Assembly (NCBI GenBank): GCA_046049585.1
Contig: JBJORD010000028.1
Coordinates: forward strand, 1-34,396
DNA from: Candidatus Parcubacteria bacterium
GTDB taxonomy: Bacteria > Patescibacteriota > Minisyncoccia > Phycocordibacterales > UBA918
Reading direction: 5' to 3'
Length of the DNA stretch: 34,396 nt
Numbering within the stretch: the stretch's first letter is position 1; the number at the start of each line of letters is the position of its first letter. Positions 8,338-33,187 of this stretch are shown piece after piece. The position numbers were made by a program, and so were the translations under genes. The notes under the pieces were generated by a model. It was given only the letters and a program-made list of their open reading frames with translations. It searched no databases and had not been told where the DNA came from.

Positions 8338-11067
8338 CTAACCTTCAGTCGTAGCTATAGTACTTGGTTCTTGACTGTTCTCAGTTACCACAGGCTCGAT
8401 ACCGACTGCAGCTTCTGCATTTTCTGTTGTGTTTAGTTCGGTTGTATTGGTATCACTAGGCTCACTTGTTTCATTAGATGTCTCTTCTGTTGCTGGCGAC
8501 GGTGCCTCAAATTGATTTTCAATAGCTTCTAAACGTTCTCGCAACAGGGCGTTTTCATTTTCCAAATCAGTCAATCTATCTTCGTGTCCGCTGATAGTCT
8601 GCCAAATTTCTTGTATGGCTTCTACTACCACAGCTACTAGGTTCTTGGTATTGAGCGACCAATAATCTCCCCCTTTTTGTACTACTTCTGGCACAACCAG
8701 ATCTACTTCTTGTGCCAAAAATCCTACCTCCGATTGGGTACCAAAACGTTCCGTATCCAACCATTCATACCGTACACCACGCAGGGCCAACACCATTTCA
8801 AGCGCACCACTAATTTCTTGCACATTTGTCTTGAGACGCTCATCTGAGGGATCACGAATGATGGCGCCATTGGCATCGACACTGAGGTTGGTAGCACCAC
8901 CAAGCAGATTCGTGGCTGTAATGGTGCCAGTGACTGTCAATTTGGTACCAGGAGTCGATGTTCCAATACCTACATTACCGTTACTGTGTATGGCAAAAAT
9001 ATCACCGTCAGTTATATTGGTAATACCAAAATAGCCCAAAGTTGAGGTGGCCAGGCTTTCGATACCAAACTCAGGAGTAGTATCAAGTAACCCCAAATTA
9101 CCAGCTGAAGTAAGACGTAATCGTTCTGCAAATACTCCTACAGAGACGGTCGAGAATCCAATAAATCCGTTGGGTGTAGTGTTATTGGTATCCTCTCTAG
9201 AGAGAGTAATCTGTGATGCTCGATCATCTGTGGTCGTAAATGAGGTGTTGTAATGTGCAATCCGTCCTGCTGTAGTAGTGATACTGTTACCGGCAGAACG
9301 CATTAGTATTTCTGTACTACGATTACTCGTACTATCAGATCCCACAAAACCATCTAATGTCAGTGAAGTGCCCGTAGTGCTCGATGCTGTGCTAAAAGCA
9401 ATAAAAGTCGCTCCACCGACACCGAGATGCTGACCATTAAATTGTAACTTGTTTGAAAAGAGTAGTTGATTAGCTGTACTTGTTGCAAATGGAATTGCAT
9501 TAGCGGTATAGACACTCGGGGTATCAGTTAGGCCTAGAAATGTTGATGCCCCACCACCACTAATTCCAAGCGAGGAAGTGGCCACCCAAGTTGGCAAACC
9601 ACTTACGACTTGCAATACTTGACCAGTAGTACCAATAGCTCGACTGGCCAATGTATCAGCTCCTGAAGCATAGAGCAGGTCGCCACTAGAATACGTAACT
9701 AATCCTGTTCCTCCCGAACTAACATCGAGTACCTCAGATAAGGTCAGTCTGGTTATTGTTGTAGTTGCTAAAGTAGAGGTACCAACAACACTAAGCCTGC
9801 CAGAATTTGTAGTACTAGCAAAAGTGGCTGTACCGGTAAAGGTTGGGCCATTTGAGAATACCGCCAATCCTCCACCTGCTGAACCAGTTTCGTCAGAGAG
9901 TAGCGCAGCTAGTTGCTCTGAAGTGGTGAATGCTGAAGACAAACCAAGTGACGAGGTGGCAATTTGTGACCACGAGTTACCAGCTCCACCAATGAGGAGT
10001 TGGTTTGTGGTGATGGTCGAGAGACCAGTCCCACCACGGGTAGCAGCGAGGGTACCAGTAGTATCGGCGATAGCGATATTGAGACTGGTGGTAGACACAC
10101 TAAGGGTGTTGCCAGTCCAGAAGAGATTGGTACCAGCGGTAATGCGAGCACTAGGGGCGTTGTAGTACGTGTTCCAGTTGGTAGATGAAGCAGTGAGGAT
10201 TCCTTCATAGCCAGCTGCGTAATCAATGGCCAAAGTACCAGTGGTTGTTATTGGTGAGCCAGAGATGGTAAAGCCTGTTGGTACAGTAGCTGCGATAGAT
10301 GACACAGTGCCACTACCGCCCCCACTGATTCCAAGCGATGAAGTCGCGACCCAGCGAGTAGAAGTACCAGTGCTCTGTAATATCATGCCAGATGCCCCAG
10401 CACTAGCTGTCGCATCTCGTAACGAGCCAGCTAAGGCGAGATCACCAGCAATAGTTAGTAACGCGATTGAGCTACTCGTACCAATACTCACTCTACCAGC
10501 TCCGTCGATATATATCCCCTCATTACCACCATCACCAGTTAACCAATTGGTGCCGAGCGCTAAATTGGAACCAATCGCACCAGAGAATATTGGCGCAACA
10601 AGTGTCGTACTAGAAACAGTAGCGGGATTTACTACAACACTCTCACGCACTTCGATAAAGTCGCTACTTGCATCATCCATAAAACTAAATAGTTGTTTTT
10701 CAAGCCGATTGATCCGCACATCACGAGACTGCTGTTGCTGCATCAATTGAACATAGCGCACCATCCCCACAAATCGACTATCGGTATATTGTTTAAAAGC
10801 ATTCCATTCATCATGACTAATACCAGTACTGTTAGATAGCTTCGTAAATTGATTGGATTGCACGAAAGGACTCACTACGGTAGTAGAAGCAACAAGTAAT
10901 TGACGCGTGATTGGTTCTGAGACTGGGACGGTATGAGTTACCACAGTATCTGCCACTACTGGGAAGGTGGTATATACCACCGAATCAGAGGACGACGAAA
11001 AAACTCCCATAACAGTGGCTAAGAGAAATGTAGATACGGTGGACAGAGAACTTACAAACCAGTCCAT
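8338..11067 (-). CDS. 909-aa N-terminally membrane-anchored tail-fibre-like surface protein with a C-terminal Peptidase_S74 intramolecular chaperone domain
   Basis: It has an N-terminal TM helix (VSTFLLATVMGVF) and a Q-rich coiled coil. A ~600-aa Gly/Ser/Thr-rich beta-repeat region follows, with the duplicated modules WVATSSLGISGGG and GGTGL...LL.G. GNVGIGTSTPGTKLTV is followed by DPSDERLKTNVQEISGALEMVLALRGVRYEW...GFLAQEV (S74 autoproteolysis signature, Ser codon 8845-8847), a coiled coil and an acidic tail. Confidence 0.8.
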   Translation of the reverse strand: MDWFVSSLSTVSTFLLATVMGVFSSSSDSVVYTTFPVVADTVVTHTVPVSEPITRQLLVASTTVVSPFVQSNQFTKLSNSTGISHDEWNAFKQYTDSRFVGMVRYVQLMQQQQSRDVRINRLEKQLFSFMDDASSDFIEVRESVVVNPATVSSTTLVAPIFSGAIGSNLALGTNWLTGDGGNEGIYIDGAGRVSIGTSSSIALLTIAGDLALAGSLRDATASAGASGMILQSTGTSTRWVATSSLGISGGGSGTVSSIAATVPTGFTISGSPITTTGTLAIDYAAGYEGILTASSTNWNTYYNAPSARITAGTNLFWTGNTLSVSTTSLNIAIADTTGTLAATRGGTGLSTITTNQLLIGGAGNSWSQIATSSLGLSSAFTTSEQLAALLSDETGSAGGGLAVFSNGPTFTGTATFASTTNSGRLSVVGTSTLATTTITRLTLSEVLDVSSGGTGLVTYSSGDLLYASGADTLASRAIGTTGQVLQVVSGLPTWVATSSLGISGGGASTFLGLTDTPSVYTANAIPFATSTANQLLFSNKLQFNGQHLGVGGATFIAFSTASSTTGTSLTLDGFVGSDSTSNRSTEILMRSAGNSITTTAGRIAHYNTSFTTTDDRASQITLSREDTNNTTPNGFIGFSTVSVGVFAERLRLTSAGNLGLLDTTPEFGIESLATSTLGYFGITNITDGDIFAIHSNGNVGIGTSTPGTKLTVTGTITATNLLGGATNLSVDANGAIIRDPSDERLKTNVQEISGALEMVLALRGVRYEWLDTERFGTQSEVGFLAQEVDLVVPEVVQKGGDYWSLNTKNLVAVVVEAIQEIWQTISGHEDRLTDLENENALLRERLEAIENQFEAPSPATEETSNETSEPSDTNTTELNTTENAEAAVGIEPVVTENSQEPSTIATTEG

Positions 11068-12076: not shown

Positions 12077-12110
12077 AGAAAAACACTTTCATATATGAAA
12101 GTGTTTTTCT
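12077..12110. repeat. 34-bp perfect palindrome AGAAAAACACTTTCATA|TATGAAAGTGTTTTTCT (copy 1 of the ACTTTCATATATGAAAGT family), positioned like a bidirectional terminator
   Basis: Read directly from the sequence. It lies between the convergent ATL stop (12057) and the AlkC-like stop (12109-12111) and has A5/T5 flanks. Confidence 0.85.
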
Positions 12111-17886: not shown

Positions 17887-18669
17887 CTAGGCACGTATCT
17901 TCCAACCACGTTTGAATATTTGTGTCACCAAAACACCAAGTCCTACCACCAATCCAAGAATCACAAAGAGTCCGACTGAAGAATTTGCTTCACTGTAGCC
18001 AATCATACTGCTTCGAATTCCGTCAGCGAAATAGAAAAATGGATTGTAAGTCGTGATGGCAGCAGCCAATGGTGGCAGCATCGTAATCGAATAAAATATC
18101 CCACCCAGATATGTCAGTGGTGTGATCACAAATGTATTCAGCACCTGCAGTTGCTCAAAACTCTCAGCCCACAACGCTACGATAATGCCAAGCATCGCAA
18201 AGATCGCAGCAATCGCACTCACATATAGTAAGAAGGCTATTGGATGGACCAAAGACACCGCCCCAAACAAGACCCCGACCACCAAGATAAGACCCGCCAC
18301 CATAACAGCACGAGCGACCGCACTCCCCACAAACCCTACTAACATTTCCACATATGAGAACGGGGTGATGAGAATCTCTTCTATACCCCGGGTAAAGCGC
18401 ATAAAGTACAAGGCTGATGAGGCGCTCGAGAAAGACGCGTTGATGATCGAAAGCATAAGTACACCGGGGAACACAAAGGTAATGTAGGGTACACCCGCAA
18501 AGTCATTAATCTGTGAACCGATGACTGTCCCGAAAATAAAGATATAGAGAGCAGCCGACACTACTGGCGCAATCAGGGTTTGTACCACCACCCGCATGGT
18601 GCGTTTTACTTCACGTCGCACCATCGTATAAAGTCCAATCCAATTTGTTGTCATAATATTGTAATACAT
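17887..18669 (-). CDS. ABC-2 type transporter permease
   Basis: Six-TM protein with an ABC-2 layout. It lies downstream of an ABC ATPase. The start is 18669 or 18654. Confidence 0.82.
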   Translation of the reverse strand: MYYNIMTTNWIGLYTMVRREVKRTMRVVVQTLIAPVVSAALYIFIFGTVIGSQINDFAGVPYITFVFPGVLMLSIINASFSSASSALYFMRFTRGIEEILITPFSYVEMLVGFVGSAVARAVMVAGLILVVGVLFGAVSLVHPIAFLLYVSAIAAIFAMLGIIVALWAESFEQLQVLNTFVITPLTYLGGIFYSITMLPPLAAAITTYNPFFYFADGIRSSMIGYSEANSSVGLFVILGLVVGLGVLVTQIFKRGWKIRA

Positions 18670-18677
18670 ACACCAGA

Positions 18678-18787
18678 GACTCCTGGCTACTAGTACTTTC
18701 TGCAGGCCTCGCGGAAGTTTGCTTTTGAAAGCAAACTGAGCGGAGAACTTGATTCGTGCCTGAAGAAAGTACTAGTAGCCAGGAGTC
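18678..18787. repeat. 110-bp inverted-repeat element (30-bp arms, 1 mismatch) in the 148-bp gap between the two ABC genes
   Basis: GACTCCTGGCTACTAGTACTTTCTGCAGGC (18678-18707) pairs with GCCTGAAGAAAGTACTAGTAGCCAGGAGTC (18758-18787). An inner hairpin AGTTTGC...GCAAACT lies at 18716-18737. Confidence 0.85.
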
Positions 18788-18817
18788 GCATCACTTGCAA
18801 TAAAAGCACGTAATGGT

Positions 18818-19555
18818 TTATTTTTGTAAAAGCTCCAAATACTTCTCTTCCACCGATTTCCCTCCCGCCATAAAGTCAGTCTTGGTGCCGTTCCAAATAA
18901 TCTGACCGTGATTAATGACTGCAATCATATTGCAAAGTTGTTGAATTTCTTCGAGATAATGTGAGGTAAGGATAATGGTAGTACCGGCATCATTAAGCTC
19001 TTTTAGGTATGCCCACAAATCGCGACGCTGCTCGACATCAACCCCAGCGGTTGGTTCGTCGAGAATGAGGAGTCCTGGCATATGCACCAGCGCTCGCCCG
19101 AGCATGGCACGACGCTTTAACCCACCAGATAACTTTTGAAATTTGACGTTCCGATGTTCTTCGAGATCAAAGCGGTCAATAAGTTCATTCACGCGACGTA
19201 TACGATCTTCGTGCGGGATACCATAGTACCCGCCCATATAGTCCATCAGTTCTGTCGGTGTCGAAAAAATATCAACATTAAATTCCTGCGGTGACAGACC
19301 GACCTTGGTACGTGCTAGTTTGTACTCAGTAACAACGTTTGTTCCGTCGATAGTTATCGTACCCGACGTTGGTTGCGCAATGCCGGTCAAACAATGAATA
19401 GTCGACGACTTGCCTGCCCCATTTGGACCAAGGAGACCAAAAAACGATCCTCGTGGTATCGACAATGTAATGCCGTCCACCGCCCGCTTTGCTTTCGCTC
19501 CGGTTCCATACACTTTTACTAAATCCGTAATCGTCACCATGGGTTTTTCTGTCAT
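18818..19555 (-). CDS. ABC transporter ATP-binding protein
   Basis: It has Walker A GPNGAGKSS, signature LSGGLKRR and Walker B LLILDEPTAGVD. The ATG at 19555 (MTEKPMVTITDL) is preferred. The ORF-track extension to 19771 crosses the divergent promoter region. Confidence 0.9.
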   Translation of the reverse strand: MTEKPMVTITDLVKVYGTGAKAKRAVDGITLSIPRGSFFGLLGPNGAGKSSTIHCLTGIAQPTSGTITIDGTNVVTEYKLARTKVGLSPQEFNVDIFSTPTELMDYMGGYYGIPHEDRIRRVNELIDRFDLEEHRNVKFQKLSGGLKRRAMLGRALVHMPGLLILDEPTAGVDVEQRRDLWAYLKELNDAGTTIILTSHYLEEIQQLCNMIAVINHGQIIWNGTKTDFMAGGKSVEEKYLELLQK

Positions 19556-19668
19556 GTGTACAGTATAGCAGAAATATGGTGAGCACAGAGAATCAGGGAC
19601 AAAGCCATCAGTAATTCTAAAACAATTCAAGATTAGAATATTTGAGGCTTTTCTGATATGGTTTTCTG

Positions 19669-20511
19669 GTGAAAAATCAAGAATACGATTGGCTACTGCG
19701 AGAAAAGTATCATGGTGAAAAAAGTGAGGCTTTTTTAGCTGATTGTGCCCGTATGGAGTCAGGCGTGCCATTAGCTTATATCATAGGGTCGATACCCTTT
19801 TTGGACTGCACTATTTATCTGGACTCCCATCCCCTCATTCCCCGCACCGAAACTGAGTGGTGGGTCGAGCAAGCTATTTCAGTCGTTCGTAATACAATAC
19901 AATCGACTCACTCGGTAGCAGTTACGAAGTCTCCGCAGCGAAAATACTCTGAGCGAGGACGGGCTTCGGAACTGCTACCGAGTGAGTTACATTACCAGGT
20001 CCTTGATCTCTGTGCAGGTAGTGGTGCGATAGGCGTGGCAGTAGCCAAAGCAATACCTGAGGCAGTAGTGACCTTTGCCGAAATTGACCCCAACCACCTG
20101 CCGACTATCCAAAAGAATCTTACAGAAAATACTTTCATATATGAAAGTATTAAATATCCAGTTATTGAGAGTGATGTATTCTCGAATGTAACAGGGACGT
20201 TTGATTTTATTCTCACAAACCCGCCATACATTGATGCCAAGGCTAATACTGTTGACGCATCTGTCATAGCACACGAGCCACACCTCGCTCTCTTTGGTGG
20301 TATTGGTGGCATGGAGATCATTGCTCGTATTATTACTGACGCCCGAGCGTACCTTACGCCGCAGATCGGACAACTCTGGATTGAGCATGAACCATTCCAA
20401 GCGGACGCCATCATGGAGATAGCACAATTACACGGATTTGAGTCGGTGACCTATACCGATCAATACGGCACAGTGCGCTATAGCATCCTTACGTTACCTG
20501 TGGCAAAATAA
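19669..20511 (+). CDS. prmC: Release-factor glutamine N5-methyltransferase (HemK/PrmC) carrying two in-frame palindromic segments
   Basis: Contains LIPRTETEWWVE, the SAM motif VLDLCAGSGAIG, the catalytic NPPY (ILTNPPYI) and HEPHLALFGG. The start is GTG. Confidence 0.85.
   Translation: MKNQEYDWLLREKYHGEKSEAFLADCARMESGVPLAYIIGSIPFLDCTIYLDSHPLIPRTETEWWVEQAISVVRNTIQSTHSVAVTKSPQRKYSERGRASELLPSELHYQVLDLCAGSGAIGVAVAKAIPEAVVTFAEIDPNHLPTIQKNLTENTFIYESIKYPVIESDVFSNVTGTFDFILTNPPYIDAKANTVDASVIAHEPHLALFGGIGGMEIIARIITDARAYLTPQIGQLWIEHEPFQADAIMEIAQLHGFESVTYTDQYGTVRYSILTLPVAK
19906..19987. repeat. 82-bp hairpin element inside the prmC reading frame (18-bp perfect arms plus a 5-bp inner stem)
   Basis: ACTCACTCGGTAGCAGTT (19906-19923) pairs with AACTGCTACCGAGTGAGT (19970-19987). 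CGAAG (19925-19929) pairs with CTTCG (19964-19968). Confidence 0.85.
20128..20151. repeat. 24-bp perfect palindrome AATACTTTCATA|TATGAAAGTATT (copy 2), in-frame in prmC
   Basis: Read directly from the sequence. It equals exactly 8 codons (N T F I Y E S I). Confidence 0.9.
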
Positions 20512-20516
20512 CTGGT

Positions 20517-20720
20517 ATGACATCTTTTGATTTAGCCCCTTTCCTGCAGATTGGTTTTTACTTGTTTGCCATTTTGTACGCTATTTTTAGCGCTGTGTTG
20601 TTTTATCACTGGCAGAACTTTTCGATGTCGCGCCTGGTCACCACACAAACATACATAGCCTACGGAGTTACGAGTGTACCGTTGTTATTAATCATGGGAG
20701 TGATTGCTTTTGCTGGATAA
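20517..20720 (+). CDS. Small two-TM membrane protein (67 aa)
   Basis: It has two hydrophobic helices. It starts 5 nt after prmC and abuts the bPH-domain gene (a YdbS/YdbT-like pairing). Confidence 0.5.
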   Translation: MTSFDLAPFLQIGFYLFAILYAIFSAVLFYHWQNFSMSRLVTTQTYIAYGVTSVPLLLIMGVIAFAG

Positions 20721-20724
20721 ATAT

Positions 20725-21288
20725 ATGCTACACGACGAAATCGAACTCGAAGTAGGTGAAACAGTGATGAAAACTGTCCGCAAACATTGGTTTGTTATTA
20801 CTATTGAAATGGTAGCGATTGTGATAATGGGGCTGGTACCCGTGATTGGTTGTATTATTCTCTTAAACCTACCCTACAACCAAGCCACAACGGTTTTGTT
20901 TGAAGAGAATTTGCCCGTCTTATTGTTTGGTCTAGCTGGATGGCTCCTTATGTCGGTCATGGCCACTGTTGTAGCCTGGACACACTACTACCTTGATCTC
21001 TGGATTATCACCGACCGTCGTATCATTGTGATCGAACAAGTGAGTTTCTTCAATCGCAAAGTGAGCAACTTTCGACTCGAACGTATGCAGGATATCAAAG
21101 TCACCATCAAAGGTATCATTCCGACGCTACTTAATTACGGTACTGTGCGTGCTCAGACAGCTAGTGCCGCTGAAAGTAACTTCACTTCACCAGGTCTCCC
21201 TGATCCACGCGGGTTACAGTCACTTATTCAGACAGCTATGGACGCCCGCCTCAAGGCACTTGGTGACGCTCCAATAATGGCAGACTAA
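20725..21288 (+). CDS. Membrane protein with a bacterial PH (bPH_2/YdbT-like) domain
   Basis: It has two TM helices followed by YLDLWIITDRRIIVIEQVSFFNRKVSNFRLERMQDIKV, typical of the bPH fold. The TTG at 20704 is an alternative start. Confidence 0.68.
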   Translation: MLHDEIELEVGETVMKTVRKHWFVITIEMVAIVIMGLVPVIGCIILLNLPYNQATTVLFEENLPVLLFGLAGWLLMSVMATVVAWTHYYLDLWIITDRRIIVIEQVSFFNRKVSNFRLERMQDIKVTIKGIIPTLLNYGTVRAQTASAAESNFTSPGLPDPRGLQSLIQTAMDARLKALGDAPIMAD

Positions 21289-21397
21289 AAAGAAAACAGA
21301 TCCCAAAAAAAACCTGTGATATTTTGTTGCAAGACTTGGCCGAGCAGCCCGGAGCACAACAAAATATGGTGGGTATTTTTGATTTTGGGTAATGTCA

Positions 21398-21426
21398 TTG
21401 CAAATACAACAATTTTCCCCTAGAAT
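21398..21426 (+). promoter_or_regulatory. hisS promoter TTGCAA-N17-TAGAAT
   Basis: TTGCAA at 21398-21403, a 17-nt spacer, and TAGAAT at 21421-21426. The ATG lies 7 nt downstream with no SD, which predicts a leaderless transcript. Confidence 0.6.
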
Positions 21427-21433
21427 CAAGGAT

Positions 21434-22696
21434 ATGGCAGACAAATTCTTGACCACCGACTCATACAAAGGAGTGCGGGATTTTTATCCAGAAGACATGG
21501 CGATACAGCGCTACATCTTTGATGTATGGAGCCATACAGCTGAAAGTTTTGGGTATGAACGGTATGATGCGTCGGTACTCGAACCGTCAGAGCTATACAA
21601 GAGTAAAGGGGCGGAAAACGAGGAGATGGTTAATGAGCAGACCTACACCTTTGTTGATCGTGGCGAGCGCGAAGTAACCCTTCGTCCCGAAATGACTCCA
21701 ACCGTTGCCCGCATGGTGGCTGGTCGACGACGTGAACTGTCTTTCCCGATTCGTTGGTACAGTATCCCAAACCTTTTCCGTTACGAACGTCCCCAGCGTG
21801 GCCGCTTGCGCGAACACTGGCAACTCAACTGCGACATGTTTGGCTCTGCTGACTACACCGCTGATGTTGAAGTAATCGCTCTAGCCAGTCAACTAATCCG
21901 TAACTTCGGGGCCGATGATTCCCTCTTTGAAATCCGTATCAATGATCGCGCCGAAATGCGAGGCAAATACAATACTCTAGGTGTCAGCGATATTAGAACC
22001 CAAGACAGCATCACCCGCCTCAACGACCGCTTCCACAAAATTTCTGCCGCCGAGTACAAAGCTGCCCTGACTGATATTGTTACGGACCAAGCTATCGTAG
22101 ACAATGTCTACACCCTTGTTTCTGGTGGCGATACTACTGACACCAACCAAGTGGTCGAAGGTTTGCGCGCGCTTGGTATCACAAATGTAAAAATCGATCG
22201 CTCGATTGCTCGCGGCTTTAATTACTACACAGGCACCATTTTTGAGATCTTTGATGTCTCTAGCGAAAACAACCGTTCAATGTTGGGTGGCGGACGCTAC
22301 GACAACCTCACGAGCATGTTTAGTCCTGAACCTATTTCTGGTATCGGATTTGGTATGGGTGATGTTACTATGCGCGACTTCCTCGAAACTCACGATCTAG
22401 TGACTGCAAGCATTACTGCCCCTACCGTTATGGTTGTTCCGATGACTACAACAGAGAATTTGGTAGCTCAACAAATCGCTGCGACTATTCGTTCCAAAGA
22501 GATATCTGTAGCAACGGACATTGGTACCCGAAAGATTGGCAAAAAAATCAGTGACGCAGCCGATCGATTAGTTGAGTACATTCTTGTTGTTGGTGAAGAC
22601 GAAGTAAAAAGCGGTACTTATACGCTCAAGAACCTGCTCGAAGAAAGTACAACGAGAGGCACTCTAGACGAATTTATCATTCAATTAACTGAATAG
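21434..22696 (+). CDS. hisS: Histidine--tRNA ligase
   Basis: Contains GVRDFYPEDM, LRPEMTPTVARM, YSIPNLFRYERPQRGRLREHWQ and GGGRYDNL (class II motifs 1-3 plus the HisRS signatures). Confidence 0.92.
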   Translation: MADKFLTTDSYKGVRDFYPEDMAIQRYIFDVWSHTAESFGYERYDASVLEPSELYKSKGAENEEMVNEQTYTFVDRGEREVTLRPEMTPTVARMVAGRRRELSFPIRWYSIPNLFRYERPQRGRLREHWQLNCDMFGSADYTADVEVIALASQLIRNFGADDSLFEIRINDRAEMRGKYNTLGVSDIRTQDSITRLNDRFHKISAAEYKAALTDIVTDQAIVDNVYTLVSGGDTTDTNQVVEGLRALGITNVKIDRSIARGFNYYTGTIFEIFDVSSENNRSMLGGGRYDNLTSMFSPEPISGIGFGMGDVTMRDFLETHDLVTASITAPTVMVVPMTTTENLVAQQIAATIRSKEISVATDIGTRKIGKKISDAADRLVEYILVVGEDEVKSGTYTLKNLLEESTTRGTLDEFIIQLTE

Positions 22697-28249: not shown

Positions 28250-29023
28250 TTAGGCTGTATCATCCAGGTAGCACTCATACAATGCTGCAAGTGTCATCGG
28301 CCAGACGAGTAGTAACACCAACTCTTCTAGTGGCACAACCTGACCAAAAAGGGTGACTGTAGCCATGTATTCGGTCGTAAACGCAAATACCCGTACACCA
28401 TTAGCAAGGGCTACTAATTCCATGAGGACAGATAGCGGCCACACCGCAACCGCAAACCAAAATACTTTTTCCAAAATCTTGCCCGACGCACCCCTCGCCA
28501 TAAATAAGAGTGTCACTATCAGGACCAAAAACAGCACTGCCAAAATCCACAAAAACGAAAAACTGACTAGTTCAACAGAGAATAAGTAGAAAAAACTGAC
28601 CACCAGAGCACCCAAAGTCACCATTAGTGGTAACAAGATTTTTTGGCGTCGGCTTTGTATAACGCCATCATCAAAGAAAAATTCGTAGAGGACCAAAAAA
28701 TACAAACTATGTACAAAGGCAAATAAGACCGATTCAAAAGAGACACCCAGGAGTCGGGTACTTGATTGAACAATCGAGTACCACGCGCCCGTTGTATGAG
28801 CAACCGCATCAATTACTACAAATACCACTGCCACCAAGGCTGTTGCAACCAACAAACGACCAAGCTGCAGTGGCCGTTCATACATCAACACAGCCAGCGG
28901 TACGCCGCAGAGCAAAAACAAAACAAAAGCCGTTGGAAGCGCTACCCACAAAGCAAGCCCAGCCACCACGACACTATAGAGTGTCAATGTAAGCAAATGC
29001 CACATTTGGAGACGAGGAACCAT
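28250..29023 (-). CDS. Polytopic membrane protein, possibly of the lycopene-cyclase-domain family
   Basis: About 7 TM helices in two similar halves. The second half carries VPLEELVLLLVW (compare the PxEE motif of CrtYc/Yd domains) and the first has SFESVLFAF. The start is moved to 29023 because codons 29024-29077 are the translation of a 17-bp hairpin. Confidence 0.5.
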   Translation of the reverse strand: MVPRLQMWHLLTLTLYSVVVAGLALWVALPTAFVLFLLCGVPLAVLMYERPLQLGRLLVATALVAVVFVVIDAVAHTTGAWYSIVQSSTRLLGVSFESVLFAFVHSLYFLVLYEFFFDDGVIQSRRQKILLPLMVTLGALVVSFFYLFSVELVSFSFLWILAVLFLVLIVTLLFMARGASGKILEKVFWFAVAVWPLSVLMELVALANGVRVFAFTTEYMATVTLFGQVVPLEELVLLLVWPMTLAALYECYLDDTA

Positions 29024-29035
29024 ATGACTTATATT

Positions 29036-29074
29036 GTACCAAGCACCGACCCATTTTGGGTCGGTGCTTGGTAC
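29036..29074 (-). terminator. 17-bp perfect GC-rich hairpin downstream of rpoD
   Basis: GTACCAAGCACCGACCC-ATTTT-GGGTCGGTGCTTGGTAC begins 16 nt beyond the rpoD stop. No clear U-tract follows on the minus strand. Confidence 0.5.
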
Positions 29075-29089
29075 CATTCTGTGTGTAGC

Positions 29090-30526
29090 CTAGTATGACT
29101 TCAGTCGTCGTGCTTTATCGTGACTACGGATTTTTTCGAGCGCTTTGGCTTCGATCTGGCGAATACGTTCACGGGTGACGCCGAATTCCTTCCCTACTTC
29201 TTCGAGTGTGTGATACGTTCCATCAAGGAGTCCGTGGCGCATCTCAAGAATTTTTCGTTCCTTCTCTGACAGGGTGTCGAGAATTTCGGTGATCTGATCA
29301 GTCAAAATACTGTGTGACACTTCTTGGTCTGGTGAGGTGATTTTGTCATCAGCAATAAAATCTGAGAGTCGTGAATGATCATCTTCATCACCAATCGGGA
29401 GCTCGAGTGAAATAGTATCCTGACTAATCTTTTCGATTTGATAAATCTTGTCTACCTCTACCCCCATTTCGGTAGCAATCTCTTCTGGCATCGGGTCACG
29501 ACCTAAGTCTTGTGAAAGTCGACGAGACACTTGTTTGTACTTGGCCATCGTTTCTACCATGTGTACTGGAATACGAATAGTACGTGACTGATCGGCCAAA
29601 GCTCGGGTAATAGCCTGGCGAATCCACCAGGTTGCGTAGGTAGAAAACTTGAAGCCCTTAGTGAAGTCGAATTTGTCTACAGCCTTAAAGAGACCAAGGT
29701 TACCCTCTTGAATCAAGTCAAGGAGAGTGAGATCAGGACTACGTCCCACGTACTTCTTGGCAATCGATACCACCAGTCGAAGGTTGGCTCGAGCCAACAG
29801 ATTACGTGCTTCTTCGTCACCGTCGACAATACGCTTGGCGAGTACCCGTTCTTCATGAGCATTCAATAGTGGATACTGACCAATTTCACGAAAGTACATT
29901 TGGATAGAGTCATAACTACTATCATTGCGCTTGAAAGCGTTCTTTTGTGCTAGTAGTTCTTCAGCTGGATCAGCACCGAGCATCCCGCCACTTTTGAGTA
30001 CATCAACACCAGCGACCGAAAAGCGCTCATATAACTCATCGAGGAACATGATGTCTTTTTCGATTTCAGGAAAAGCACGTAAGAGCTCGTCGTAGGTAAC
30101 ATAACCGCGCTCACGACCTGACTTCATGAGTTCAGCGGCTTTTAACTCAAGAATCTTTTCTGATTTTGTCAGTGGCTTTGGTGGCAATGCCTTAACTACC
30201 GGAGCGGCTTTTACCACTACTGGTGCAGCGGCTTTTTTGGTAACCACCTTACCAACGACAGCTTTTTTTACAGGAGCTACTTTTGCTACAACTTTTTTTG
30301 CTGAGACTGTCTTTTTAGTGACTGGTTTTTTGGACACCACTTTTTTCACAGCTTTCGCTGCTTTTTTTGCGACTTTTTTGGCAACTGGCTTCACGACTTT
30401 TTTTTGAGCACTGACCTTTTTGATGGTCTTTTTTGCTACAGATTTTTGAACTTTGGTAACGGTTTTGGCCGTTTTTTTAACTGCTTTTTTTGCGACTTTT
30501 TTGGCGGTTGCCATATGTGAAGACAA
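29090..30526 (-). CDS. rpoD: RNA polymerase primary sigma factor with a Lys/Ala/Val-rich N-terminal extension
   Basis: It has region 2 ([18 protein letters not shown]...[17 protein letters not shown]), region 3, and region 4 ([24 protein letters not shown]). The ATG at 30514 is an alternative start. Confidence 0.92.
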
Positions 30527-32706: not shown

Positions 32707-32732
32707 AAATACTTTCATATATGATAGTATTT
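32707..32732. promoter_or_regulatory. 26-bp palindrome AAATACTTTCATA|TATGATAGTATTT (copy 3, 1 mismatch); candidate operator overlapping the promoter of the TrpR-like gene
   Basis: It ends 4 nt before the ATG at 32737 and contains the -10-like TAGTAT (32725-32730). Confidence 0.6.
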
Positions 32733-33161: not shown

Positions 33162-33187
33162 AAATACTTTCATATATAAAAGTATTT
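33162..33187. repeat. 26-bp palindrome AAATACTTTCATA|TATAAAAGTATTT (copy 4, 1 mismatch)
   Basis: It starts 5 nt after the stop of the TrpR-like gene and lies immediately before an independent GC-containing terminator. Confidence 0.85.

Follow-up and report, generated by a model that had tools for sequence, protein, structure and literature searches.

The window analysed here is the whole stretch of 34,396 nucleotides (nt) of a Candidatus Parcubacteria bacterium contig (JBJORD010000028.1), and represents 34 kb of this genome. It harbours prmC, the gene encoding the release-factor glutamine methyltransferase, and within the coding sequence of prmC lies an 82-nt hairpin (Table 1). The apex of this hairpin is a bipartite tip of ~29 nt, named core 1, that was also found at the prmC site of two other loci, in a cultured actinobacterium and in metagenome contigs, a good number of which have it on an unrelated stem. 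The best explanation, to which a probability of roughly 0.45 is assigned, would be that the 82-nt segment is a hairpin-forming DNA insertion foreign to the ancestral prmC, and that it belongs to an uncatalogued family of selfish DNA and is translated through a tolerant loop of the protein.

A hairpin in the domain linker of PrmC

The product of the host gene matches PrmC/HemK model TIGR03534 (E = 2e-51, but below the equivalog cut-off) and scores above the cut-off of TIGR00536; its named PrmC homologues are from Patescibacteria or Paceibacteria. The two arms of the hairpin, of 24 nt each, are 96% complementary and separated by 34 nt, and their pairing consists of 18 perfect base pairs (bp), one mismatch and the inner 5-bp stem CGAAG/CTTCG, which is the structure that the initial annotation of this DNA had described. 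As had also been read there, the open reading frame (ORF) of prmC stays open across the whole hairpin. Stops interrupt the 82 nt in five of the six frames, and the one that stays open is that of prmC. The expected RNA fold is a strong one: positions 19896-19997 fold at -51.2 kcal/mol, compared to -23.2 +/- 3.4 kcal/mol for 200 dinucleotide shuffles (z = -8.4), none of which matches the stability of the natural sequence. A second assembly (L082; JGI 3300043447) aligns to positions 18499-22592 of the window with 8 mismatches in 4094 nt, and the hairpin stretch compared is identical, so that an assembly artefact is unlikely. An origin from a sequencing adapter or from fold-back during assembly was rejected, as in-frame gene sequence is present on both sides of the hairpin and two assemblies agree; variation of the tip following host GC content also opposes it.

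The hairpin lengthens the protein. Insertion was judged in a set of 80 prmC loci, against about 60 orthologues and HemK of Escherichia coli. Between alignment blocks that pair residues 24-71 with HemK 57-104 and residues 108-268 with HemK 110-266, 36 residues of the window protein stand opposite 5 of HemK. The distance from the PR.ETE motif to the S-adenosylmethionine-binding motif LDLCAGSG is 62 amino acids (aa) in the window, compared to 31-37 aa in most Paceibacteria and in orthologues from outside the candidate phyla radiation (CPR), among which Clostridia, Rickettsia and others. Removal of the 82 nt brings the linker to ~35 aa, within the range of the orthologues; the gain is about 28-30 residues (~84-93 nt). 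The insertion postulated between the ETE helix and the S-adenosylmethionine motif is thus borne out, and alignment of PrmC orthologues showed the insert to be present in some and absent from most. The PrmC tree is star-like, and one old acquisition of the insert is not separable from several on that tree. The insert site is the linker joining the N-terminal helical domain of PrmC to the Rossmann fold. AlphaFold (48-sequence alignment, mean predicted local distance difference test score 85.6) models the insert, which follows helix 60-85 and precedes the first strand (110-114) of the Rossmann fold, as a low-confidence coil with mean scores of 52-66 in blocks of 10 residues, in keeping with the notion of a translated spacer in a housekeeping gene. 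Intron-like excision is unsupported, the frame being kept in every orthologue except that of L045. This prmC, in the complete Candidatus Nomurabacteria chromosome CP060229.1, runs over three frames with two internal frameshifts, which are most likely assembly indel errors; otherwise it is a pseudogene.

The tip occupies the same linker in two further lineages of Paceibacteria. In L081 (protein P0017) it reads TCCGCAGCGA-GAATGTTCC-GAGCGAGGAC and is sense-oriented, as in the window, on arms of ~19 nt that are unrelated to the window arms. L207 is a syntenic relative with 65-80% DNA identity to the window over matching blocks. In its prmC linker the tip is on the opposite strand, antisense to prmC, and encodes QQVLARDILAADA instead of PQRKYSERG. 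Identity of the L207 tip to that of the window amounts to 19 of 20 positions in the half-sites and to only 3 of 9 in the centre. The left-arm region of L207 is homologous in frame to the window arm (S-P-H-V-V-A-V; 19 of 30 nt identical), while the pairing of its hairpin has decayed. An arm common to both implies that the whole hairpin has been handed down together from before the split of the window and L207 lineages. Covariance model R1, built on the tip, detects the window copy at 19924-19969 (37.9 bits, E = 1.6e-6), L081 (41 bits) and L207 (33.5 bits, opposite strand); these E-values, all between 1e-6 and 1e-5, are rough, and the window score is partly circular because the window sequence belongs to the R1 seed alignment.

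The two 10-nt halves of the tip are thus nearly invariant in three prmC lineages, with differing centre, arms and peptide. This invariance was not imposed by a query, because L081 and L207 were found via their protein. As the half-sites are kept while peptide and orientation vary, the constraint acts on the nucleic acid and not on the peptide, independent of orientation. A homologous peptide encoded by non-palindromic DNA in relatives had been named beforehand as an argument against insertion. Both PQRECSERGHAE of L081 and its window counterpart PQRKYSERGRAS are encoded by palindromic DNA, and therefore the insertion hypothesis stands, in a reshaped form, as the L081 arms differ.

Table 1 Positions of prmC, its hairpin and the other features discussed
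Feature	Locus	Position	Strand	Remarks
prmC (release-factor glutamine methyltransferase), host gene	window	19669..20511	+	280 aa; insert ~ residues 80-107
Hairpin left arm	window	19906..19929	+	ACTCACTCGGTAGCAGTT, then inner ACGAAG; encodes THSVAVTK
Conserved bipartite tip (core 1, 9-nt-centre subtype)	window	19932..19960	+	TCCGCAGCGA-AAATACTCT-GAGCGAGGAC; encodes PQRKYSERG
Hairpin right arm	window	19964..19987	+	CTTCGG plus AACTGCTACCGAGTGAGT; encodes ASELLPSEL
Separate 114-nt hairpin	window	18676..18789	-	arms 26-30 nt, z = -10; in 148-nt gap between ABC ATPase and permease genes
ABC ATPase, mechanical ORF	window	18818-19771	-	317 aa; overlaps prmC start
Palindrome ACTTTCATATATGAAAGT, four copies	window	12085-12102; 20131-20148; 32711-32728; 33166-33183
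Hairpin overlapping annotated ATG	window	29033-29077		21-nt arms, 3-nt loop
Palindrome matching prmC copy of ACTTTCATATATGAAAGT	L021	3567-3598
tRNA-flanked tip copy	L093	31-56
tRNA-Ser(GGA)-fused tip	L200	5839
tRNA-Ser(GGA)-fused tip	L102
tRNA-Ser(GGA)-fused tip	L158	4233
Second tip	L010	12240
Second tip	L014	7970		ABC junction
Second tip	L027	5797
Second tip	L028	923		truB loop
Second tip	L038	3229		prmC linker
Third tip, first copy	L006	5627-5702		outer arms differ from second copy
Third tip, second copy	L006	about 8540-8615		outer arms differ from first copy
Helicase-nuclease gene (UvrD + PD-(D/E)XK)	L010	14143-17463	-	three in-frame inverted repeats, arms 18-27 nt
Helicase-nuclease gene	L061	16394-18349		one in-frame inverted repeat, in inter-domain linker
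dnaG	L036	8906-10669		one in-frame inverted repeat, after Toprim domain
prmC over three frames	L045	10001-10754		two internal frameshifts
Imperfect ~170-nt hairpin	L203	2403-2622		Pseudomonas IncP/MOBF plasmids

Occurrence of the tip and origin of the stems

A metagenome collection was scanned for the tip with the exact pattern TCCGCAGCGA-N7-11-GAGCGAGGA, a bipartite pattern of 19 nt derived from the window and L081 that requires no complementarity of the flanks; diversity and copy numbers in the scan set are lower bounds, and half-site invariance within the scan set is imposed by the query. Among the matches listed, flanking stems of at least 12 bp were present at 34 of 120, compared to 3 of 600 control positions on the same contigs, and stems of at least 20 bp, the longest measuring 32, at 16 of 120 compared to 0 of 600; this is an enrichment of stems over control positions of ~57-fold. 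Among these same matches the stem differs in every tip-bearing metagenome copy, and the GC content of the contigs ranges from 0.38 to 0.72. The existence of related copies at other loci is supported; what recurs is the tip, and the arms are not shared between the window, L081 and the metagenome copies.

It can also be asked of these data whether the palindrome was made purely locally, de novo, by a template switch in prmC, the shared tip being coincidental. Tip-less perfect palindromes indeed exist at the prmC site of L014, L035 and L061, and that of L061 lengthens the linker by exactly one arm plus loop (27 nt). Such an origin is nevertheless most improbable, as a 19-nt exact pattern retrieves dozens of hairpin-capped copies, with the stem enrichment given above for the matches listed, and as R1 recognizes the window, L081 and L207 copies at the E-values given above.

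Two subtypes of the tip were seen. One has a 7-nt centre (N-C-GNA-G-N'), is mostly found in high-GC contigs and displays conserved GAGT and CTGTCTGAG shoulders; the other, of low-GC contigs, has a 9-nt centre and a CCA/CAA bulge 3' of the tip. The tips of the window, L081 and L207 are of the 9-nt-centre subtype, and a low-GC contig with such a tip (L160) belongs to Patescibacteria according to its protein homologues. The cultured bacterium Collinsella aerofaciens harbours two copies between convergent genes, amounting to about two in 900 kb, with a common inner part of ~65 nt and different outer arms (17-22 nt). An element peculiar to the Parcubacteria genome is incompatible with this distribution over Collinsella and over contigs of such different GC content.

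Within the tip, only two pairs are left unconstrained by the search pattern, and these covary: the first is GC in 12, CG in 11 and AU in 3 sequences, the second CG in 18, UA in 5 and GC in 2. A covariation score as high as the observed one was reached in none of 500 shuffles, and it collapsed in slid controls. Support for core 1 that is independent of the window consists of this free-pair covariation and of 28 metagenome seed sequences. At the Rfam gathering threshold no element-related match was obtained in the window or in 40 tip-carrying loci, to group I and II introns and ribozymes as little as to other families, and at E <= 10 only the generic long-hairpin match mir-3160 appeared, below its cut-off. 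The literature, searched both for sequence strings and for the concept, yielded no description of the tip family.

In a number of copies the sequence of the stem can be traced. In the L093 copy the 5' arm is made up of T-arm and acceptor end from a tRNA, and the 3' arm is the reverse complement thereof, a 17-nt inverted copy. Three contigs (L200, L102, L158) have the tip joined directly to tRNA-Ser(GGA) at its 3' end, with a downstream complement that tracks the acceptor sequence of each tRNA. L131 and L140 have flanks that are 95-98% identical while the arms of their elements are entirely different, and the right arm of L131 is an inverted copy of flank common to both loci. Template switching, or quasi-palindrome mutation, is known to create and repair perfect stems (PMC8794818), and the stems of L093, L200/L102/L158, L131 and the prmC palindrome of L061 fit fold-back or template-switch copying. 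Further tips were observed 25-200 nt from genes for transfer-messenger RNA (tmRNA; L127, L188), tRNA-Phe (L191), tRNA-Asn (L124) and tRNA-Met (L165).

Several of these features would suit a structured RNA with a function in the mRNA of prmC and in further transcripts, for example a protein-binding or RNase III-type hairpin that tunes expression and whose stem is held by compensatory change. The fold is very stable, pairs within the tip covary, the window and L081 stems differ yet still pair, the tip is sense-oriented in both, and several copies adjoin tRNA or tmRNA genes. However, the L207 tip is antisense to prmC, the copies between convergent genes in Collinsella and in L131/L140 occur in both orientations, and the L165 copy is antisense between two tRNA genes. 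A role at the mRNA level is disfavoured because of this inverted L207 copy and the mixed orientations elsewhere. Perfect duplexes of 18-32 bp are, moreover, atypical of functional bacterial RNAs, Rfam gave no match even at permissive thresholds and most prmC orthologues lack the hairpin, so that this explanation is considered quite unlikely.

A site that acts at the DNA level has been considered too, namely a protein-binding or recombination site held by selection and extruded or presented by the stem. Candidates are a tyrosine-recombinase-type site, with imperfectly inverted ~10-bp arms around a 7-11-bp spacer, and a single-strand hairpin signal. The half-sites are nearly invariant on whichever strand while centre, arms and peptide vary, and on inspection the left half matches the reverse complement of the right half at ~6-7 of 10 positions. 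A GCGAAGC-type centre forms a very stable DNA mini-hairpin, which also speaks for such a site. Plasmid, phage and viral-contig searches for the tip gave short or stemless matches only; weak partial matches to an IncP conjugative plasmid, a Burkholderia phage and haloarchaeal pleolipoviruses could be taken in its favour, but those to the plasmid and the phage are short and, at E 0.02-0.9 (R1 E = 0.23), close to what chance gives. The element has no linked partner gene, core sites of recombinases do not usually have a spacer that varies (here 7-11 nt), and the host has no reason for such a site inside prmC. A DNA site of this kind is therefore regarded as unlikely.

The IncP match lies in a stretch of Pseudomonas IncP/MOBF plasmids (L203; ~30 records) that is unannotated and has small hypothetical genes on one side and umuD on the other; it forms an imperfect ~170-nt hairpin whose apex, ACCGCAGGGAGCGCAGCGAGCGAGGATATG, weakly resembles the tip (R1 20.4 bits, E = 0.23). 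A composite element, also of ~170 nt, is conserved in L115, L123, L124, L133, L146 and L175 (GC 0.53-0.57). It has a full tip between two ~29-nt units (CTGTCTGAGTYGTCACACCATGTYCGAGT), with the 3' half-tip on the left and the 5' half-tip on the right, and is closed by outer arms that covary between contigs. It has no Rfam match and has the look of a structured RNA or DNA in which the same tip module is reused; Tandem Repeats Finder was blind to the short composite arrays in L124, L133 and L123. In L117, L137, L145, L171, L104 and L134 (GC 0.65-0.70) the tip is part of a conserved hairpin with T-run/A-run inner stems, adjoining short terminator-like hairpins with loops GAGCGNAGCGA. These contigs are possibly haloarchaeal, because partial matches are present in Halorubrum pleomorphic viruses. 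In L117 the 3' end of a gene (…LDEKGLPIRL*) is duplicated on either side of the tip element.

A kink-turn, with tandem G.A after a 3-nt bulge, was considered as a fold of the tip and dropped because natural variants lack the tandem G.A or have an extra base in the non-bulged strand, as in the reverse copy of L131 (UCCGCAGCGCGAAGCGCGAGGA) and the Collinsella copies. Hammerhead and other ribozyme motifs and a likeness to the sarcin-ricin loop (shared GAGGACC) were rejected, having come from inspection only and having no Rfam support.

Other hairpins in Paceibacteria genes and in the window

The prmC linker is expanded in other Paceibacteria as well, and 9 of 11 such linkers examined fold as strong hairpins, each of different sequence; the hairpin type includes L001/3/4, L002, L014, L035, L036, L038, L049 and L061, and not L015 and L026. 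In-frame hairpins with other tips, or with none, are indeed common in Paceibacteria genes, which is a further sense in which the window element is not peculiar. A second tip, (T)AGACTT-GGCCTAGCGGCC-YSGAGCG, was found at five non-homologous sites in five Paceibacteria genomes, on copy-specific stems that are often terminator-like with A and T runs. A third, G-rich tip, GG(T/A)GGGCGGTGTTGGGGTGGTGGG(C/T)GAA flanked by ATTTGC/GCAAAT, is possibly quadruplex-forming and has two copies in L006, one in-frame in truB, where it adds ~19 aa, and the other at the junction of two ATP-binding cassette (ABC) transporter genes. A comparison of TruB proteins, aimed at telling the native from the added arm, is confounded because the closest orthologue, of L028, has a decayed hairpin of its own at the same site. 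In-frame inverted repeats are also present in helicase-nuclease genes and in dnaG (Table 1). The density of long hairpins is 20.7 per 100 kb in Paceibacteria loci and 11.8 in control loci, an about twofold difference. Frequent insertions that are lethal nearly everywhere else would, through selection, end up in just such a recurrence at the same sites.

The prmC linkers of L208, L209 and L210 harbour a nested hairpin family, GCAATCCAG...CTGGATTGC, encoding AIQ...GLPR or GLLR. The outer arms TCGTCGTTGCGAG/CTCGCAACGACGA are conserved between the relatives L208 and L209, and L208 retains a half-tip, CCGCAGCGA.

In the window itself a separate hairpin lies between the genes for the ABC ATPase and for the permease, two genes that directly adjoin each other in most syntenic relatives. 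This junction holds hairpins in the window, L207, L014 and L006. The L207 element is homologous to that of the window, with CAGGCACGA.TC...TCTC.GCTC...GC.AGG.CT in common and with different outer arms and inner hairpin, while those of L014 and L006 have other tips. It had been thought that the loop of this hairpin shares a motif with that of the prmC hairpin. This likeness did not hold up: alignment of the two loops is no better than that of shuffles (p ~0.05 in either orientation), and R1 does not detect the hairpin at 18676-18789 at E <= 10. The overlap of the mechanical ABC ATPase ORF with the start of prmC disappears when the real start is placed near 19555 (MTEKPMV, 245 aa), in accordance with homology and with the gene call in L082.

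An 18-nt perfect palindrome, ACTTTCATATATGAAAGT, is present in four copies with at most one mismatch where 0 are expected. The copy inside prmC extends to 24 bp (20128-20151) and encodes NTFIYESI, at the spot of which many PrmC orthologues have NTIIYDSI; it looks like a candidate protein-binding site that is also translated. A matching palindrome is present in L021. Finally, the hairpin at 29033-29077 includes sequence of the ATG annotated for minus-strand ORF 28250-29077. It is located shortly downstream of where ORF 29090-30526 stops, and is not terminator-like.

Known repeat systems and the proposed origin

The prmC hairpin was initially likened to the Rickettsia palindromic elements (RPEs). 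These are ~150-bp elements of ten families, each with a conserved sequence and encoded peptide, and they are confined to Rickettsia (PMC10969869). Both systems have palindromes that lie in-frame in unrelated housekeeping genes, are tolerated and give the protein an additional surface segment; in both the genome is a reduced one, and copies occur between genes as well. RPEs conserve a full-length consensus of ~100-150 bp and its peptide in all copies; here, in contrast, only the ~29-nt tip is kept, the arms are copy-specific and the peptide changes with orientation, as the inverted L207 tip illustrates. The tip moreover spans distant phyla at low copy number, whereas the host range of RPEs lies within Rickettsia and its relatives. 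The RPE comparison therefore survives as an analogy and not as membership. The REP/REPIN, ERIC, Correia and BOX families resemble the tip family as short non-coding hairpin repeats without a transposase of their own, often intergenic near gene ends. [quoted passage not shown] In the tip family this conservation is inverted, the tip being conserved and the stem free. In the RAYT-mobilised REP/REPIN elements a GTAG or CGTC tag stands at the end of a palindrome of 20-40 bp. The window arm does contain GTAG, though internally (CGGTAGC), and the L081 arms lack it.

A classical MITE or RPE-type element, moved whole by a transposase encoded elsewhere and with arms diverged after an old insertion, has to be weighed against these differences. 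The length added to prmC (~28 codons) equals the whole 82-nt hairpin plus 2 nt, arms have been inherited between the window and L207 lineages and are conserved between L208 and L209, and in-frame MITE insertions are known (PMC10969869). On the other hand, terminal sequences are conserved between no two copies and outer arms differ in every copy, even within one genome, as in the two Collinsella copies and the two core-3 copies of L006. Neither a target-site duplication nor a high-copy burst was seen, and the sequence of several stems is that of host tRNAs or of shared flanks. The copies thus lack the conserved full length or termini and the target-site duplication that define classical RPEs and MITEs, their number in the stretches covered is low, and this origin is held to be highly unlikely.

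The integron attC sites and other recombination substrates of folded single-stranded DNA are recognized as hairpins, by structure more than by stem sequence, which would be a likeness to the tip family, and their copies vary in length and sequence. In attC sites conserved boxes are located at the base of the hairpin and the tip is variable. An integrase or cassette context is lacking at the prmC element. In compact mitochondrial genomes, invasion by hairpins has been described for the repetitive hairpin-forming elements of sponges and the coding palindromes of Nematomorpha, among which insertions in protein-coding genes that stay functional (PMC2800124, PMC6649704). In Nematomorpha both arms encode conserved protein regions, in contrast to the present case, and the available parts of these reports describe no shared apical module for the organelle elements (PMC2800124, PMC6649704). 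Template switching shares with the tip family perfect, copy-specific stems, stems that copy adjacent host sequence and one-arm-plus-loop addition (L061, L093, L131), but alone it fails to explain a conserved bipartite tip across phyla. A conserved tip with free stems is a pattern unmatched by any catalogued repeat or RNA family.

The selfish insertion proposed at the outset would belong to a widely scattered, low-copy family defined by the ~29-nt tip (UCCGCAGCGA, a 7-11-nt centre, GAGCGAGGA). The tip would fold as an irregular mini-helix that caps a long, near-perfect stem of copy-specific sequence. The window copy displays this bipartite arrangement, UCCGCAGCGA-N7-11-GAGCGAGGA, with paired closing positions, and a long copy-specific stem of 24 paired positions. 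It is speculated that the tip is the recognized or propagated unit, acting as folded single-stranded DNA, and that intrastrand template switching (fold-back copying) builds the stem or keeps it perfect, sometimes from flanking host sequence. Copies would survive only at the few permissive sites of gene-dense genomes, such as protein surface linkers and gene junctions, which would explain why the same sites are hit or remodelled repeatedly. In prmC the ribosome presumably reads through the insert, which would be tolerated.

A number of observations weigh against this explanation. Copy number is low, with one tip in 34 kb (window), one in 21 kb (L207) and none found by R1 in 869 kb of other Paceibacteria loci. 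No transposase and no identical sister copy were found for the tip element, and no target-site duplication was found around the 30 best-defined hairpins or around the window copy (flanks ...AATCG, TACAT...). The length added in the window (~84-93 nt) fits the whole hairpin and not the tip plus one arm, so that fold-back copying of native flank is undemonstrated for this copy. The half-sites, near-invariant in three diverged prmC lineages in either orientation, are unlike a decaying selfish remnant and suggest either that selection acts on them in place or that copies not seen here convert them. The functional explanations set out above are kept alive because of this near-invariance and the low copy number.

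A bolder proposal is that the ~29-nt tip is the mobile or recognized unit of an unrecognized, cross-phylum class of elements that builds its stem by fold-back copying of the flanks, that several tip families in Paceibacteria time and again remodel one set of permissive linkers in essential proteins and that a widely conserved protein reads the tip. Seeding of hairpins from flanking DNA by the tip would explain the stems made of tRNA 3' ends and of shared flanks. Taken as a whole this proposal is doubtful.

If the selfish-insertion explanation is true, essential genes of the ultra-small CPR genomes have repeatedly been lengthened by translated hairpin DNA, and such inserts would contribute to the insertions and differences in length of CPR proteins that lack an explanation. 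Hairpin inserts of this kind inflate alignments of proteins and make them confusing, and assemblies of metagenome-derived genomes can break at them. A conserved tip on a free stem, from Paceibacteria to Actinomycetota, is the reverse of every catalogued bacterial repeat, and points to an unrecognized route by which hairpins are made or spread, or to an unrecognized protein that reads a folded DNA or RNA motif. A concrete 29-nt sequence is now on hand for testing the idea of such a route or of a tip reader.

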